In this document: one piece after another, positions 11,904 through 20,379 of the stretch
Layout: every line of letters starts with the position of its first letter
How positions within the stretch are numbered: position 1 is the stretch's first letter
Origin: Rubripirellula sp.
GTDB lineage: Bacteria > Planctomycetota > Planctomycetia > Pirellulales > Pirellulaceae
Direction: 5' to 3'
Assembly (NCBI GenBank): GCA_965216875.1
Contig: OZ244207.1
Location: forward strand, 5,120,001 to 5,184,000
Length of the DNA stretch: 64,000 nucleotides
Notes under the pieces: model-generated
What the model was told of the DNA's origin: nothing
The model's database searches: none
Seen by the model: only the letters and a program-made list of their open reading frames with translations
Program-made: the position numbers and the translations under genes

Positions 11904-14720
11904 CTACCGGCCCTCACTGGCAAGGCTGGCGACCGCCGCCTCGATTCTGCGACGACTCTCCTCATTGACCACCCAGTCGGACTGGACCGGATAGCCTGCT
12001 TCGGCTGCCGACACCAAATCGCCGACAAGCTGCCGATCATCGATTCGACGAATCAATAACACTTGATGCTGCGAATAGCCATCCCGCAGCAAACGCCATG
12101 TCCAATAGTAGGACGCGTCCGCCACGCCATCGCTCGCATTGCTGAAAGACGCATCAGCGAGGGCTACCTCGTCCTCTTCCAACATGCCAGAACTTTCCGT
12201 CGCGAGCGACTCGTCTTGATCACCGGCAAGGCCATCGTCGGAATCGGCATCAAGTACCTCTCCGACAGAAGACTCAACCGTCGCCTCTTGTTCCGATTGC
12301 TGAAGGGTGGCCGCCACGAGGGCCAAAATGTCTTCGCCGTACTGCTCGATGGTCGCCGCACCGATCCCCGAGACCGCCGCCAATTCTTCACAATTAGCTG
12401 GTTCGGCTTCCGCGACACGATCGATCGTGGCATTGGTCAAAACTCGGTAGGCAGGAATACCGAACGCCGCCGAGGTCTTGTGACGCCAACGTTTCAACTT
12501 GGCCACCAACTCTGCGTTGATCCCCGACTCCTGATCCGATTCTCCCGAGGAAGCGTCTGACTGCTTTGGCTGATCATCCGGCTCGACACTTCGCCCCGCG
12601 GCGGCAAGTCGTTTGGCGAGTGTTTTCGGCAATTGAATGAAATCAGGCATCGGGTCATGTTCGTGCATCACCCGACGTCCCACATCAGTAATGTGAATCG
12701 TTGGCCGACGCTCATCCACTTCCTTCTGTTCCAACAAACCGGCTTCGATCAACACATCCATGACTTGACCGACTTCGGTTTGGCGAAGCCCCGACATCAT
12801 GCCGTAAGTACTTAGACGATGAAGTTTCCACTGCTGTAGCTTCTTGTTCTTGGAACCGCACAGCATTTGCGAAACCATGATCTTGCCAAAGCGGCCGTGC
12901 ATTCGAGTGACGCCGCTCAGCACAACGCGAATGCCGCGGGTGAAGGCGTCGCGGTCGATCCCGTCGAGATGATTGACGCTGACCTCGTCGCCGCTCTTCA
13001 CACTGCTTGCGCCGATCGCATCACATCGGTCGCATGTCCCGCAGCTCTCTTTGGAATCATCGCCAAAGTAATTTAGAATCACTCGCTGTCGGCACATGGC
13101 GGTGCGTGCGAACGCGATGACCGCCTCAAGCTTCTCGTATTCCGACTTCTTGCGGCGTTCCAATTCGTCAAAGTCGATTTCGAGTTCGTTGAAGGGAACA
13201 TCACGCCTTGAAATATGGATCGCTCGGCCGCGAAAGGGTGGGACGTAGTCGAATGCCTTCAGCTTTTTCAGTTCGCGGAGCGTTCGTGAGAGTTGCTCAC
13301 GATCAACATCGGCCAGTTCCATCAATCGCTTTGGCCGCACAAAAACGTCATCGCCACGTCGCTCGCCGACAACGCGTTCGACGGCCTGCATCACTCGGCG
13401 ACGCAGCTTGGCTTCTTTGGGCAGGTAATCGAGCAGCGTGGGCGCGTCGCTATCGATCCGCAGCATTGCGTGATTCGAGTTGCTGTCCATTCGCTTCAGC
13501 ACGCCGGCACGAGCGAGCAACGTTTCCGCCGTTCCAATCGCCTCGCTGCCATCTTTGACGTTGATCGCTTGCCGCACTTCTTCGAGCGTCAATTCGATCG
13601 GATCTTGCTCGAGCCCCAGCAGGTATTCATAGACGCTCTTTACCGTCTCGCGGGACGGATAGCGATTCTCGATAAAGAACTCTTGGATGTATCGGTCGCT
13701 GTACGAAAACAGCAACACGCAATCGCTGTTATCGCCGTCGCGCCCGGCGCGACCAGCTTCCTGGTAGTAAGCTTCGAGACTGCCAGGCATGTTGTAGTGC
13801 ACGACATAGCGAATGTCGGACTTGTCGATCCCCATCCCAAACGCGTTGGTTGCGACAATCGCGCTCAATTTGCCCGACATGAAATCGTCTTGCACTTGCT
13901 TGCGTTGGTGTGGCTCGAGACCCGCATGATAAACACCGATCGGGCGTCCAAGACGTTGGGGCAACCACTCGGCAAGCTCTTCGCAACGTTTTCGAGTCGC
14001 CGCGTAAATGATGCCGGCACCTGTCTGCGCCGACAAATACGTTTGCAGTTGCTCTTCCTTGTCGCGATCCGAATTCGCGTGCAGCACTTTGAACCGCAGG
14101 TTCTTTCGCGCAAACCCCGTCACAAAGACGTGCGGCTTCTTCAACCCCAACAATTGGCCAATGTCGTCGCGAACCAACGGTGTCGCGGTGGCCGTGAGCG
14201 CAATGGTTTGAACGTTTTGCAGGTACCGCTCGCGAAACAGCCCCAGCCGCGAATAGTCCGGGCGAAAGTCGTGTCCCCATTCGCTCACGCAGTGCGCTTC
14301 GTCAACCGCAAGCAGAGTGACCTTGGCATCGGCGACCGCTTGCAGGAAACGGTTGTTCCGCAAGCGCTCCGGCGCGACGTAGACCATTTGCAGTTGGCCG
14401 GCCGCCATCTCGTTCATCACTTCCGCTTGCTCGCCGGCCGAAAGACTGCTGTTGATCAGTTTTGCCGAAATACCAAGTTGTTGCAGCGCATCCACTTGGT
14501 CCTTCATCAATGCGATCAAGGGCGAAACGACAATCGTGACGCCCTCGCGAGCCAAACTGGGAAGCTGGTAACAAAGACTCTTGCCACCCCCAGTCGGCAT
14601 CACGCACATCACGTCTTCGCCCGACGCAACGCTTTCGACAACGTCGCGTTGACCAGGCCGAAAATCCTTGAGCCCAAATCGCGAGAGCAGTGATGTAAGG
14701 TCAGCTACCGAGCCAGACAT
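11904..14720 (-). CDS. recQ: RecQ family ATP-dependent DNA helicase
   Basis: MPTGGGKSLCYQLP, VDEAHCVSEWGHDFRP, YYQEAGRAGRDG, zinc site CRQ...CGTCDRC, RQC and HRDC-like regions. Confidence 0.95.
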   Translation of the reverse strand: MSGSVADLTSLLSRFGLKDFRPGQRDVVESVASGEDVMCVMPTGGGKSLCYQLPSLAREGVTIVVSPLIALMKDQVDALQQLGISAKLINSSLSAGEQAEVMNEMAAGQLQMVYVAPERLRNNRFLQAVADAKVTLLAVDEAHCVSEWGHDFRPDYSRLGLFRERYLQNVQTIALTATATPLVRDDIGQLLGLKKPHVFVTGFARKNLRFKVLHANSDRDKEEQLQTYLSAQTGAGIIYAATRKRCEELAEWLPQRLGRPIGVYHAGLEPHQRKQVQDDFMSGKLSAIVATNAFGMGIDKSDIRYVVHYNMPGSLEAYYQEAGRAGRDGDNSDCVLLFSYSDRYIQEFFIENRYPSRETVKSVYEYLLGLEQDPIELTLEEVRQAINVKDGSEAIGTAETLLARAGVLKRMDSNSNHAMLRIDSDAPTLLDYLPKEAKLRRRVMQAVERVVGERRGDDVFVRPKRLMELADVDREQLSRTLRELKKLKAFDYVPPFRGRAIHISRRDVPFNELEIDFDELERRKKSEYEKLEAVIAFARTAMCRQRVILNYFGDDSKESCGTCDRCDAIGASSVKSGDEVSVNHLDGIDRDAFTRGIRVVLSGVTRMHGRFGKIMVSQMLCGSKNKKLQQWKLHRLSTYGMMSGLRQTEVGQVMDVLIEAGLLEQKEVDERRPTIHITDVGRRVMHEHDPMPDFIQLPKTLAKRLAAAGRSVEPDDQPKQSDASSGESDQESGINAELVAKLKRWRHKTSAAFGIPAYRVLTNATIDRVAEAEPANCEELAAVSGIGAATIEQYGEDILALVAATLQQSEQEATVESSVGEVLDADSDDGLAGDQDESLATESSGMLEEDEVALADASFSNASDGVADASYYWTWRLLRDGYSQHQVLLIRRIDDRQLVGDLVSAAEAGYPVQSDWVVNEESRRRIEAAVASLASEGR

Positions 14721-16148: not shown

Positions 16149-16760
16149 ATGCCCAGGCCGCTGACGTTTCAGCTTGGCGAGTGCGAGTTCACTGGCACTC
16201 TCAAAAAAGTCGACCGCTCGAAGCTGTACGGCTACAAAGAAGTTCAAGCGTTGGATGACGAGAATGACACGTGTGATCTCGCCACGCTCGCCGGTGATGG
16301 ACGCACATTGATTGGACGCGGTGGCACAGGTCTTGGTTGGCTCGATGCCGACGGATGTTGGCAAGAAAAGTCCGACTTGAAACCCGTCGACAAAGACGGC
16401 AAAGAAATCGAACCGGTTGCGAGTTCATTTAGTGCGCCGGTCAAACTCTTCGACACTGCAACGACCGAAGACTACCTCGACCATAACGTTCGACTTGTCT
16501 ACGCCATGGACCTTGATGGCGACCTTGACGATGTGGTCGCCGAATTGAAACGAGGGACGATTTTCAAGTTCCCGTACAGCTATCGCGGCGGCCTCGAAGC
16601 CGACACCGCCTTTCTACTGACCAACGAAGCTGGCGAAATCATGATGGCTGTCGGCGATCCGGCAAGGATCGAATACATCGGCATGCAAAAGACCGCCGCA
16701 ACCGTTGTCGAAGAAGACAGCGAGGAAGAAGGCGGGCTGATGGACTTTGACATGATCTAA
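16149..16760 (+). CDS. Hypothetical protein, putative divergent Ku-core homolog (Ku-like A)
   Basis: 203-aa ORF with an acidic tail; its segment order matches the bacterial Ku core by eye (see findings). Confidence 0.7.
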   Translation: MPRPLTFQLGECEFTGTLKKVDRSKLYGYKEVQALDDENDTCDLATLAGDGRTLIGRGGTGLGWLDADGCWQEKSDLKPVDKDGKEIEPVASSFSAPVKLFDTATTEDYLDHNVRLVYAMDLDGDLDDVVAELKRGTIFKFPYSYRGGLEADTAFLLTNEAGEIMMAVGDPARIEYIGMQKTAATVVEEDSEEEGGLMDFDMI

Positions 16761-16805
16761 CGGTCGGCATCTTCTTGTCCCCATTCCATTGCAAGTGAGA
16801 TTCAC

Positions 16806-17519
16806 GTGGGCGAAATCAACCTCAGCAACAGTGCTGGACGCGATGCGGTCGTTTCAACCGATAGCGTCTCAAGCTCGAAACAAACGCGTTGGCTCGATCA
16901 ACAAAGCCGACAAGCGTCAAGTGTTCGTATCGCAAAGTCGACGGTCGAGCACGATATCGATTCGCTTCTGGAAAAACATGGCGACCTCTCGGCTCTTGCC
17001 GACGCTCTCGTTGTGTCGGACCCCGAAATCGATTTCGAAAACACCGGCCGCTTCTTGAGCGAAACGTCGCGCGTCTACATCGGCCAAGATCGAAAGATCG
17101 TCCGCAACGTTCGTTTCATGGAAATCGTCAAGAACGCCGATGGCTCGGTTCGCGAAGAACGGCCGCGTGTGCTTGCCGATACGAATGTCGCAGGCGAGTC
17201 GCCGCTGAAATGGTCCGGCGTCTACATCCCGAAAGACAAGGCGATTCGCAAGTTCGTCTTCTCAGGCAAAGTGCAATTGCATCACGTCAACGGCCTGACT
17301 TTCGACTTCCTGTTTGGGATGGCCAAGGAACTTCAGCAGCGCAATTGCTTGATGCTATTGGGCGCCGGATCGAAATCGAACCAACCTCTGATCCTTCGTC
17401 GCGGTGGCACGCCTTATCGCGGCTTCCTCGAAGGCCGAATTGAAGGGGACGAGTATTGCTTGTTGCTGCATTTCTCGAACCTCGAACTGAAACTTCCTGA
17501 ACCTGGCGAAGAAGACTGA
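16806..17519 (+). CDS. Hypothetical protein, putative divergent Ku-core homolog (Ku-like B)
   Basis: 237-aa ORF with a GTG start. The C-terminal half FVFSGKVQL..LFGMAKELQQRN..LILRRGGTPYRGFLEGR..YCLLLH resembles the Ku barrel. Confidence 0.7.
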   Translation: MGEINLSNSAGRDAVVSTDSVSSSKQTRWLDQQSRQASSVRIAKSTVEHDIDSLLEKHGDLSALADALVVSDPEIDFENTGRFLSETSRVYIGQDRKIVRNVRFMEIVKNADGSVREERPRVLADTNVAGESPLKWSGVYIPKDKAIRKFVFSGKVQLHHVNGLTFDFLFGMAKELQQRNCLMLLGAGSKSNQPLILRRGGTPYRGFLEGRIEGDEYCLLLHFSNLELKLPEPGEED

Positions 17520-17535
17520 CTGCGGGAGAACCAAT

Positions 17536-19179
17536 ATGAGCACTGCGACTGATCTGTTGGACCGCCAGCGGTTCGAAATCAAGATGGGCGACTATGGCGT
17601 GGGTACCTCACACGCTGTCGCCGATTCGAACATTCTTGCCAAGACGCAAGACTATCGTCGACAAGCCGGTTCACGGATGATCCCGCTGGGAAAATCGGAC
17701 ATCCGAGGAAAAATCCCAGCATCGGATTATCACGTCTCACGAAAAGTCGACGGTGAGTTTACGGTTTTGGTGTACCGCGACGGCGAGATCTTTTCGATCA
17801 ACCCTGGCGGAACTGTTCGCATCGGTCTGCCATGGCAAGCCGAAGCCGCCAAAGCACTCAAGAAAGCGAACATCAACGAAGCGATGATCGCTGGCGAGCT
17901 TTACGTTCACAATGAAGAACGTCGCCCGCGCGTCCATGATGTGAGCCAAGTCGCCAGGCAACCTGACAGCGAAGCCGACCTCCAACTTCTTTGCTTTGCC
18001 GTCTTCGATGTGATTTCCATCGATCAGCAGCCCGCAAGCGAAGCCTACGCGAGCACTTGGCAAACCATCGAAAGCCTGTTTGGTGGCGGCGATCTCGTTC
18101 ACCCCGTTGAAACTCGAATCATCGCCGACACCGGTGGCATCGAACAGCTGTTTGATAAATGGGTCGAGGGAGAAGATGCCGAAGGCTTGGTCGTGCGCAG
18201 CGACAGTGCGGGATCGTTCAAAGTCAAACCTCGCCACACCGTTGATGCGGTGGTGGTCGGATTCACCGAATCGACCGACGACCGTCAAGGCATGCTCCAT
18301 GACTTACTCGTCGCCGTGATGCGCGAAGACGGAACGTTTCAGATCCTTTGCCGAGTGGGCGGTGGCTTTGATGAAGACGAACGCCGGTCATTACTTAGCG
18401 ACCTGAAAGACATGGTCGTGCCAAGCGAATACGCCGAAGTCAATTCCGATTACGTCGCTTACCAAATGGTGCGTCCCAATTGGGTCATCGAGATCAGCTG
18501 CCTTGACATGATTTCGCAGACGACCCGTGGCGGCAACATCAACCGCATGGTGCTCGACTTCGACGCCGACGACACAGGCGGCTACAAAGTCGTCCGACGC
18601 CTTCCACTTGCAACCGTGATTTCACCCCAGTTCGTTCGCATTCGCGAAGACAAACAGGTGCATCCCAAAGATGTGCGTCTTGCTCAGGTGAGTGACCGTG
18701 TTGAAGTGGCGATGACCGAGCTGGACGCCAAGAACTTTAAGCTCCCCAAAACCGAAATCTTGCACCGCGAGGTCTACACGAAAGAATCGAAGGGCCAAAC
18801 GATGGTCCGAAAATTCGTTGTGCTCAAGACAAACAAAGAAGAAGAAACCGAAGAATACCCAGCGTTCGTGCTCCATTACACGGACTTCAGCCCGAACCGC
18901 AAGGATCCTTTGTCACGCGACGTTGCGGTCAGCGATTCGAAGGAACAGATCGAGGCACTTCTGCAGACCTGCAAAGACGAGAACATCAAAAAGGGTTGGA
19001 ACGCGGTAGGGGAGGGGAGTGCGGACGCGCAAGCGGTCGCCGTCGAGGAAGCCCCGAAAAAGACCGCGAAGAAGAAGGTGACCAAAAAGAAAGTCGCCAA
19101 GAAAAAAACGGCAACCGCTGAAAAAACCGACGCGGCACCGAAGAAAAAACGAGCCACCAAGAAAAAGAAGGCGAAGTAG
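17536..19179 (+). CDS. ATP-dependent DNA ligase (NTase + OB) with a WGR-like domain and a Lys/Ala-rich tail
   Basis: Motifs RKVDGE (I), AGELY (III), FAVFDV (IIIa), EGLVVR (IV), FKVKP (V); OB fold DAVVVGF..RVGGGF..PQFVRIREDK; RBS-like GGGAG upstream. Confidence 0.9.
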   Translation: MSTATDLLDRQRFEIKMGDYGVGTSHAVADSNILAKTQDYRRQAGSRMIPLGKSDIRGKIPASDYHVSRKVDGEFTVLVYRDGEIFSINPGGTVRIGLPWQAEAAKALKKANINEAMIAGELYVHNEERRPRVHDVSQVARQPDSEADLQLLCFAVFDVISIDQQPASEAYASTWQTIESLFGGGDLVHPVETRIIADTGGIEQLFDKWVEGEDAEGLVVRSDSAGSFKVKPRHTVDAVVVGFTESTDDRQGMLHDLLVAVMREDGTFQILCRVGGGFDEDERRSLLSDLKDMVVPSEYAEVNSDYVAYQMVRPNWVIEISCLDMISQTTRGGNINRMVLDFDADDTGGYKVVRRLPLATVISPQFVRIREDKQVHPKDVRLAQVSDRVEVAMTELDAKNFKLPKTEILHREVYTKESKGQTMVRKFVVLKTNKEEETEEYPAFVLHYTDFSPNRKDPLSRDVAVSDSKEQIEALLQTCKDENIKKGWNAVGEGSADAQAVAVEEAPKKTAKKKVTKKKVAKKKTATAEKTDAAPKKKRATKKKKAK

Positions 19180-19185
19180 CCGTCC

Positions 19186-19261
19186 TCGTCACCACGCTCC
19201 CGCGTGGTGACGCACTCTTCGGACGCTCCGCGTCCTCTGCGGACGTCATGCTCCGCATGAC
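19186..19261. repeat. Cluster of short palindromes (GCTCCGC-cored REP-like family G)
   Basis: GTCACCACGCTCCCGCGTGGTGAC, GGACGCTCCGCGTCC, GTCATGCTCCGCATGAC; the last recurs inverted at 47067-47083. Confidence 0.7.
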
Positions 19262-19273
19262 AATCGCTCGAAT

Positions 19274-19352
19274 CGTAGCTACCTTCGCCAGAAGGTGGTT
19301 TCCATTGGCAGACCGCTTCCCAACACCCCACGCTCTGGCGAGCGTAGCTACG
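19274..19352. repeat. GTAG-type REP doublet (family A)
   Basis: Same arms as 8243-8293 with a longer spacer. Confidence 0.85.
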
Positions 19353-20379
19353 GCGAGCGTTTGTTGTCATGCACAGCATGACCTACTAGACGGAGTGTTA
19401 CCGAACGATGGTCCGAGCCGATGTCGGGACCAACGTTGTGCTGGACGCACTGGAGGTCGGTGCTGATCATCCCGTGATCAAGCACCAGCCCAAAGGCTGG
19501 GTTCGCAAACCGGGCGTACCAAGTCGGCTGCATCCCACTTGATGCACGCCTCAAGTGCGACCGACGCTCGAAGTCGCCAAAAAGCGGAGACCAAGGCGTC
19601 AAGTTCAAGTCGCCTACAAGGATCGTCGGCATCGTGTCACGATTCCTTTCCCGCGAGATCCTATCAGCAAGCTGCTTCAAGTGGTCGTTGCGTCTATCAA
19701 ATCCTCTCTTTCCCATAGGCGGAAGCGGATGAGTTGCAATCACTCGGTACTGCTTTGATTCCTTTTCAATCGTTGCTGCAATGGTGAGGATGCGATCGAC
19801 GTTTAATTCAAAGCTTTGGCAATCGGTTATCGGAAACCGGCTGTAGAGTCCGATCCCGAAATTACTGTCATCCATTGGGAATGGCTGTCGGAATGGGTAC
19901 CGTTGACCAAATTCGCTGACGATCCGATCCCCCAACGATGTACTCAATTCCAACACAGCAAAAACATCGGGACTCCTTTCGGAGATATCATCGATGATCG
20001 CCTCATGATTCCTGTTCGCCGTGTTAACGTTGGTCACCATCACTACGATCTCATTGCCGCCGGCAAGCTCAACATTTGCCGGGAGCATTGATCGAAAGAA
20101 AGACAGGTGGATCGTGATCAAGGTCGCACCGAACAAGGCCCAGCGCCATTTGCGGTAGCAGACTGACACCATCGAAACGCCCAGCAACCCGATCACTTGC
20201 TGCACGCGCAGGTTCGCAACGATGTCGGCGACCCAATGTTGCCGAGCGAAGAAAGCGGCGAGTGTCGTCACTGTGCCAATCGCAAGGCAGACAACGACTA
20301 ACGACCAAATCCGTTCAGCGGCCCATTTCAGTAGGCCCGACGATTCGGTGGGCGATGAAGACGAATCGTGATCATTCAT
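19348..20379 (-). CDS. Membrane-anchored endonuclease/exonuclease/phosphatase family protein
   Basis: N-terminal TM helices; NV..N, VLE, ATHP, VGDLNLTPWS, LDH, GSDH; start taken as MNDHD at 20379. Confidence 0.88.
   Translation of the reverse strand: MNDHDSSSSPTESSGLLKWAAERIWSLVVVCLAIGTVTTLAAFFARQHWVADIVANLRVQQVIGLLGVSMVSVCYRKWRWALFGATLITIHLSFFRSMLPANVELAGGNEIVVMVTNVNTANRNHEAIIDDISERSPDVFAVLELSTSLGDRIVSEFGQRYPFRQPFPMDDSNFGIGLYSRFPITDCQSFELNVDRILTIAATIEKESKQYRVIATHPLPPMGKRGFDRRNDHLKQLADRISRERNRDTMPTILVGDLNLTPWSPLFGDFERRSHLRRASSGMQPTWYARFANPAFGLVLDHGMISTDLQCVQHNVGPDIGSDHRSVTLRLVGHAVHDNKRSP

Follow-up and report, generated by a model that had tools for sequence, protein, structure and literature searches.

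The window considered here, i.e., a stretch of 64,000 nucleotides from Rubripirellula sp. (GenBank assembly GCA_965216875.1, contig OZ244207.1, positions 5,120,001 to 5,184,000 of the forward strand), carries three co-oriented genes, called A, B and C in the following. Judging from predicted models, they look like a system that works in the manner of Ku-ligase end joining, yet they lie outside the Ku and LigD families as these are defined by sequence. A and B would be very divergent, shortened Ku-fold proteins that interlock as one heterodimeric ring. The ring would thread onto a double-stranded DNA end and bring in the co-encoded ATP-dependent DNA ligase C, perhaps via an acidic tail of A or an extra domain of C, and C would then seal the break. 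In the planctomycete branch, a primase-polymerase fused to a putative phosphatase domain (AEP-HAD, see below) would do the gap filling and end healing in trans, as the polymerase (POL) and phosphoesterase (PE) modules do in LigD. We regard this scheme, including the filling and healing of ends by AEP-HAD in the window's branch, as probable, with a real share of doubt. DNA-end binding, ligase recruitment, the AEP-HAD role and break repair in the cell are all things that we infer, the end binding and the repair from the fold and the gene context. A sequence-only reading of this locus had proposed a repair module of a heterodimeric Ku plus a ligase, and this is supported by the present analysis. 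The features are as follows (window positions).

16149..16760, + strand: open reading frame (ORF) A, predicted Ku-fold subunit; 203 amino acids, barrel plus bridge at about residues 1-180
16689..16757, + strand: acidic, low-confidence C-terminal tail of A with a conserved end motif; candidate partner-recruiting peptide
16806..17519, + strand: ORF B, second predicted Ku-fold subunit; 237 amino acids, GTG start
17536..19179, + strand: ORF C, ATP-dependent DNA ligase; 547 amino acids, with nucleotidyltransferase and OB domains, an extra C-terminal domain and a Lys-rich tail
18733..19014, + strand: conserved C-terminal domain of ligase C (residues 400-493), possibly WGR-like; 59% mean column identity over 81 sequences
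19187..19382, no strand: hairpin and palindrome cluster, a genome-wide interspersed repeat outside the system

Predicted folds, pairing and linkage of A and B

By sequence, A and B belong to no named family. Neither matched a family in Pfam, NCBIfam, PHROGs or PADLOC, their profiles found no match in sequence searches of the PDB, and an Atlas search with A returned unnamed clusters only (scores below 0.8). Among 95 diverse homologues of B, no Pfam family was common to more than one and no Ku family was found. At E-values up to 0.001 the families comprise 592 (A) and 1,915 (B) proteins, the latter forming 553 clusters at 50% identity. Profiles of A and B built from deep alignments gave a weak end-to-end match with each other (174 columns, E 0.0008, probability 24%); those from shallow alignments gave no alignment.

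The Ku-type fold that had been suspected for both upstream ORFs is borne out in their predicted models by Foldseek and VIA-align. With the AlphaFold2 (AF2) model of B (mean predicted local confidence, pLDDT, 94.7), every listed Foldseek match was a Ku entry (best E 1.9e-05), and in a VIA-align fold search of 48,161 chains the Ku protein of M. tuberculosis ranked first (Z 12.8, 173 residues aligned, root-mean-square deviation (rmsd) 4.0). With the AF2 model of A (pLDDT 84.4), the first three Foldseek matches were bacterial Ku, and VIA-align gave a tie at Z 10.6 between the Ku proteins of M. tuberculosis (175 aligned, rmsd 8.9) and B. subtilis (160 aligned, rmsd 5.1). The aligned ranges, 160-175 residues for Ku versus about 100-110 for SPOC domains, indicate that A and B possess the Ku bridge besides the barrel. 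Whereas the Ku cores were solved to 227-229 residues, the alignments end at residue 181-190, and A and B would therefore have no equivalent of the helical part at the C-terminus of the core. B has an extra helical insert at about residues 51-70 and ends soon after the last barrel strand. A and B are outside the Ku family by its sequence definition, and the barrel and bridge of the Ku fold are present in the predicted models. Four homologues of B (P0286, P0287, P0228 and P0245) have long Lys/Ala/Pro-rich tails; mycobacterial Ku has tails of a similar kind.

The acidic tail of A is of low confidence (pLDDT below 50). At its C-terminus is the motif hydrophobic-Asp-Phe-x-Met-hydrophobic, found in 99 of 102 non-redundant homologues, whose last 25 residues contain a mean of 9 Asp plus Glu; D199 and F200 are at least 90% conserved (103 sequences). 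By likeness to the tails of SSB, it could be a docking peptide.

The heterodimer envisaged by the sequence-only reading passed against controls when it was modelled: the A+B complex reached an interface score (ipSAE) of 0.78, the best of the three controls 0.00. Of 157 solved complexes, 116 attain the pass mark for this score, as do 2 of 215 mismatched pairs. Contact agreement between runs was at least 87% and partner pLDDT at least 81. In the model, the bridge segments of both chains interlock through about 300 contacts, with A 21-87 packed against B 25-46 and 86-113, and B 147-154 against A 106-114; the latter two segments are equivalent in the A-B alignment, as expected of a pseudo-symmetric Ku dimer. 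The interface is a predicted one, and the co-occurrence of A and B, as computed from the genomes, is obligate. Stronger evidence for the pairing than this model or the weak covariation (see below) comes from the gene distribution. In all seven genomes with an unlinked B, A was found elsewhere in the genome, and the copy numbers of A and B were equal in the six genomes with full-length matches among the 301 sampled (1, 1, 1, 1, 2 and 3); the same 301 included one more with only a fragment of B and one with only a marginal match to A. At one locus (L154:5446-6714), A (profile positions 1-142) and B are in one open frame, either by natural fusion or by a deletion.

A neighbourhood survey, as suggested by the sequence-only reading, found the trio to be conserved across several phyla. 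Counting only loci with enough flanking sequence, and genome and metagenome loci apart, the order A-B-C was present at 61 of 74 genome loci and 49 of 50 metagenome loci (110/124 together). A lies directly upstream of B at 69/76 genome and 60/61 metagenome loci, and C directly downstream of B at 69/78 and 59/61, respectively; at L032, counted as a miss among the genomes, C sits in B's own frame. The named cassette loci are from Planctomycetota, Myxococcota, Cyanobacteriota, Spirochaetota, Chloroflexota and Verrucomicrobiota.

The ligase, the AEP-HAD protein and neighbouring genes

The third protein, C, keeps intact ligase catalytic residues. K70 (the lysine of KxDG), D72, G73, E121, R130, G217, K231, R370, D372 and K373 are the same in all 81 non-redundant homologues, and the nucleotidyltransferase motifs are followed by an OB domain (PF04679 match, residues 250-373, E 2.7e-10). 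The sequence-only reading had credited C with all the motifs of an ATP-dependent ligase, which stands for the catalytic residues; not every motif is canonical, however, as two positions deviate from the archaeal ligases, with Asn-Pro in place of Ser-Arg after motif I, and Arg221 in place of Lys in motif IV. By profile similarity, C is closest to archaeal ligases (E 1e-22), followed by human ligase 1 (1e-17) and the ligase domain of M. tuberculosis LigD (6e-08). The large N-terminal DNA-binding domain seen in the archaeal ligases most like it is absent. As had been claimed, C has no polymerase or phosphoesterase domain, i.e., scans with Pfam and NCBIfam found no POL or PE module; its score with the LigD family TIGR02779 was 64 (cut-off 228) and with NCBIfam ligC 36 bits (cut-off 296).

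The description of C as a "minimal" ligase was wrong, since residues at about 400-493 form an extra conserved domain that is followed by the Lys-rich tail. This domain had no sequence match in the PDB; its likeness to WGR (PF05406) is weak (hhalign probability 16%, E 0.0016, 35 columns; Atlas score 0.76). A basic tail is present in 21 of 84 homologues of C, and four of six long homologues that were scanned are fused to an AAA+ ATPase. The C-terminal AAA+ fusions occur in one branch (L135:3273-6401, L153:6744-9839, L154:6759-9836, L164:6723-9869). At nine loci (L101, L102, L104, L107, L109, L110, L111, L113 and L147) the match to the ligase is interrupted near profile position 100-130, suggesting that one or two metagenomic branches have an insertion there. 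One homologue of B (P0318) is apparently fused to a stretch resembling the ligase C-terminal domain; either the fusion is genuine or the assembly is chimeric. A search of the source genome with the C profile found C alone; a search with PF01068 misses even C and therefore says little about other ligases in the genome.

The source genome is a single contig of 8.26 Mb and 99% complete, and has no match to PF02735 Ku, to the LigD phosphoesterase or to the LigD polymerase. The proposed independence from LigD stands in this respect, with the qualification that the ends are probably processed in trans by a protein in which an AEP primase-polymerase is fused to a putative HAD-type phosphatase domain. 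Its gene in the source genome (C1:2730657-2731829, minus strand; L203:5657-6829) is 2.4 Mb from the cassette. The motifs AIDID, GGFHL and R-x-x-G-R-H-H of the AEP domain and C-x-D-x-D-G-V, K-P and D-D-R of the HAD domain are invariant in 6 of 6 aligned copies. The AEP domain matched PF22548 just under the cut-off (E 2e-05), its closest solved relative being the CAPP Prim-Pol (E 1.7e-06), and the HAD domain matched PF18143 only at E 0.006-0.05, also under the cut-off. Polymerase plus phosphatase is what LigD has as POL plus PE, from which we infer that AEP-HAD may process ends for C.

The co-occurrence of this candidate partner with the cassette is new in this analysis. Of the first 50 cassette genomes, 36 have a match to AEP-HAD, with at least 50% identity in 34 of them, versus 4 of 301 sampled genomes, and of these four matches the two strong ones are in cassette bearers (the source genome and G170), the other two being partial with 32-35% identity. 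Nine of ten further close relatives have neither B nor AEP-HAD (for the tenth, see below). Since kin are not independent, no statistic is attached to this co-occurrence. The two are seldom linked, as AEP-HAD is in the same locus as the cassette at 5 of 170 loci; further AEP-HAD loci are L021, L033, L053, L066 and L133.

The genes that recur next to the cassette (80 loci) are a BRCT-MerR-TPR gene (12 loci), a gene for a protein of about 200 amino acids (9) and the AEP-HAD gene (4). Of 23 canonical Ku loci, five also have a MerR-TPR gene directly after Ku and one more has a partial match, which ties the two kinds of operon together. Only the adjacency is informative, as the BRCT-MerR-TPR gene is present in 25 of 26 cassette-negative controls (and in 29 of 40 cassette genomes) and is thus no marker at the genome level; the copy in the source genome is not linked to the cassette. 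The gene of about 200 amino acids (L022:4604-5212 and eight other loci) had no family match and was not found in the source genome.

At the locus itself, the arrangement given by the sequence-only reading was confirmed: three co-oriented ORFs with gaps of 45 bp (A-B) and 16 bp (B-C), followed by a palindrome cluster. This consists of a hairpin (19187-19212), palindromes at 19245-19261 and 19366-19382, and a 25-nt inverted repeat (19274-19352). The region 19180-19390 matches 412 distinct 500-bp bins of the genome, so that the hairpin and palindromes 3' of C belong to a genome-wide repeat and are not specific to the cassette. A promoter scan of the locus gave 0 sites, and terminator-like sites were no commoner than in shuffled sequences. 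A gene for a 938-amino-acid RecQ-like helicase, assigned by motifs, is on the minus strand 1.4 kb upstream (window 11904-14720); its linkage to the cassette was seen in four close relatives only.

Distribution and alternative readings

The spread of the cassette is patchy, with B in 7 of 301 genomes of the window's phylum, 26 of 201 of the phylum of the Myxococcales locus, and 1 of 201 of that of the Oscillatoria locus (the centre genome only). The closest named loci are from Pirellulaceae, with up to 83% identity in B. A different picture is seen in genome G616, which has at least 14 copies of the trio (loci L227-L240, e.g., L237:5839-13928) that are 70-98% alike. Seven of the 14 have a large serine recombinase and a DUF2924 gene upstream, and five have a Fic gene downstream. 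The unit, of 5-10 kb, includes a DUF4314 gene and has long ligases, the one scanned being an AAA+ fusion; it looks like a small integrative element. Three copies of the same branch are in G077. Among 34 proteins scanned around one G616 copy, no phage structural family was found.

Several results weigh against the end-joining reading. At the sequence level there is no link to Ku: when A and B were compared by hhalign with a profile built from 17 canonical Ku proteins, the probabilities were 0.04% and 0.4%. The TM-scores of A and B are only about 0.35-0.48 with large rmsd, and SPOC domains come close behind Ku, by about 1 Z (Z up to 11.8 for B, over about 109 residues, and 8.9-9.2 for A). A is strongly acidic, with a median net charge of -10 over residues 1-180. 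The A+B model may owe its score to a resemblance to Ku dimers of known structure. Over 134 paired loci, A and B covary weakly: the 25 model contacts have a mean z of 0.49 (p about 0.013 versus random interface pairs), and the top 30 pairs show no clear enrichment (7 versus 4.8 expected). No AEP-HAD was detected in 14 of the 50 cassette genomes (completeness not given) or in four more distant ones, and the AEP match of the closest relative is only partial; the tenth of the ten further close relatives (G381, which is G308 among the 50) has the cassette with only a partial AEP match. Canonical Ku is present in 8 of 79 cassette genomes versus 47 of 301 sampled, so there is no clear exclusion between the two; this count leaves out L065, which is the same isolate as L057. 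Mutual exclusion of the cassette and canonical Ku was not shown; none of the seven B-positive sampled genomes has Ku, but seven are too few to judge.

The likeness to SPOC domains and the acidity of A would fit a different arrangement, in which A and B are SPOC-like interaction barrels or separate homodimers that regulate the ligase, and no heterodimer encircles the DNA. This is very improbable, as both proteins align over the Ku bridge too, the modelled interface uses the bridges of both chains, and A and B co-occur at equal copy number. A ring is kept in another reading, according to which A-B, together with C and AEP-HAD, would repair nicks and gaps instead of joining double-strand ends, the ring acting as a clamp or scaffold. 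A preformed Ku ring, however, loads only at free DNA ends, the MerR-TPR neighbour is common to canonical Ku loci, and no glycosylase or AP endonuclease family was among the listed recurrent neighbours (80 loci, only some scanned against Pfam). We consider the clamp improbable, although C, having no large N-terminal DNA-binding domain, could need one, and a polymerase plus a phosphatase would be equally suited to gap repair. The model for it would be the base-excision route of LigC/PrimC, where LigC and its partner primase-polymerase mainly act (PMC7470946).

The multicopy branch raises the question of whether the same binding and joining of ends is devoted more to mobile or foreign DNA than to everyday repair of the chromosome, i.e., by sealing excision or integration breaks, circularising or protecting the ends of an element, or acting against phage DNA. 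The patchy spread and the G616 copies, with their recombinase, DUF2924 and DUF4314 genes, speak for such a role, and end joining in mycobacteria has been tied to phage defence (PMC12848934). Yet this branch is far from that of the window in a quick tree of 131 B proteins, and the window cassette is single-copy, with a GC content (0.545) near that of the genome (0.563) and with RecQ and dehydrogenase neighbours that are common to close relatives. None of the three proteins matched a family in PADLOC, which covers known anti-phage defence. An origin from a phage or plasmid found no support, as viral contigs, plasmids and phages gave no match (single-protein queries in all but one search). On balance we find a predominantly mobile or foreign-DNA role doubtful, and prefer the scheme of an A-B ring that loads on double-strand ends and recruits C.

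Relation to known end-joining systems

Canonical bacterial end joining is carried out by a Ku homodimer with LigD (PMC12784961). With such systems (Ku family PF02735; PDB 9I91, 8V53 and 9VNQ; M. tuberculosis and B. subtilis) the cassette shares the predicted barrel-and-bridge fold, an ATP-dependent ligase in the operon, basic tails on some members and the MerR-TPR neighbour. It differs in having two different subunits with a shorter core and no PF02735 or profile similarity, and a ligase that is without POL and PE, closer to archaeal ligases and equipped with its own C-terminal domain. Two co-encoded Ku genes are known from Sinorhizobium meliloti, where a Ku3-Ku4 heterodimer that acts with three-domain LigD enzymes such as LigD4 has been proposed from genetics (PMC6379672). 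Whereas these are recognisable Ku orthologues, A and B cannot be identified as Ku from their sequences and have little resemblance to each other. Canonical Ku genes that are side by side, as Ku3-Ku4, were seen in several genomes of the window's phylum (G133:C68, G062:C2, G017:C252, G043:C223, G123:C94). In its general layout the cassette resembles eukaryotic Ku70/Ku80 with ligase IV, in which an obligate heterodimer of diverged Ku cores (a predicted one in the present case) is combined with a stand-alone ligase and separate end-processing enzymes. A and B have none of the vWA, SAP and Ku80 C-terminal domains, and there was no sign here of direct ancestry.

The bacterial ligase classes have been reviewed as LigB, C, D and E plus a WGR-bearing group with another OB type, PF14743 (PMC7470946). 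C shares the PF04679-type OB and the lack of a large DNA-binding domain with the LigC-PrimC/PrimPolC systems, but is far below the NCBIfam cut-off for ligC; a WGR-like appendage is possible in C, the OB type of the WGR-bearing ligases being PF14743. The solved relative of the AEP domain, PDB 7P9J, is the CRISPR-associated primase-polymerase CAPP (PMC10345425), which differs from AEP-HAD in that the latter has the HAD fusion and tracks the Ku-like cassette.

No description of the trio was found in the literature searched; most subscription papers were outside it, and supplementary neighbourhood tables could list the trio. The stem "Planctomycet" does not occur in the excerpt of a Ku phylogeny (PMC11936186). 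In a survey of 5,973 genomes, Ku and LigD domains were used to assign the state of non-homologous end joining (PMC7719229), and surveys of this kind would score cassette genomes as being without end joining. Among the 79 cassette genomes searched, 71 had no canonical Ku match.

A wider claim, which we put forward tentatively as it falls a little short of an even call, is that the cassette represents a complete, separately evolved, eukaryote-like end-joining pathway. Its Ku would be an obligate heterodimer that sequence searches do not detect, its ligase would be a dedicated enzyme with no relation to LigD, and a free-standing polymerase-phosphatase, though usually encoded elsewhere, would be inherited together with the cassette; in one branch, the ligase would be fused to an AAA+ ATPase, and that branch would spread on a mobile unit that bears a recombinase. 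Should the trio join ends, end joining would be more widespread than has been counted, and an asymmetric Ku would have arisen in bacteria with subunits far more diverged than Ku3 and Ku4. Three or four small proteins would then allow a direct test of what a heterodimer adds, and the trio could serve as a compact module for end joining when the genomes of laboratory bacteria are edited.

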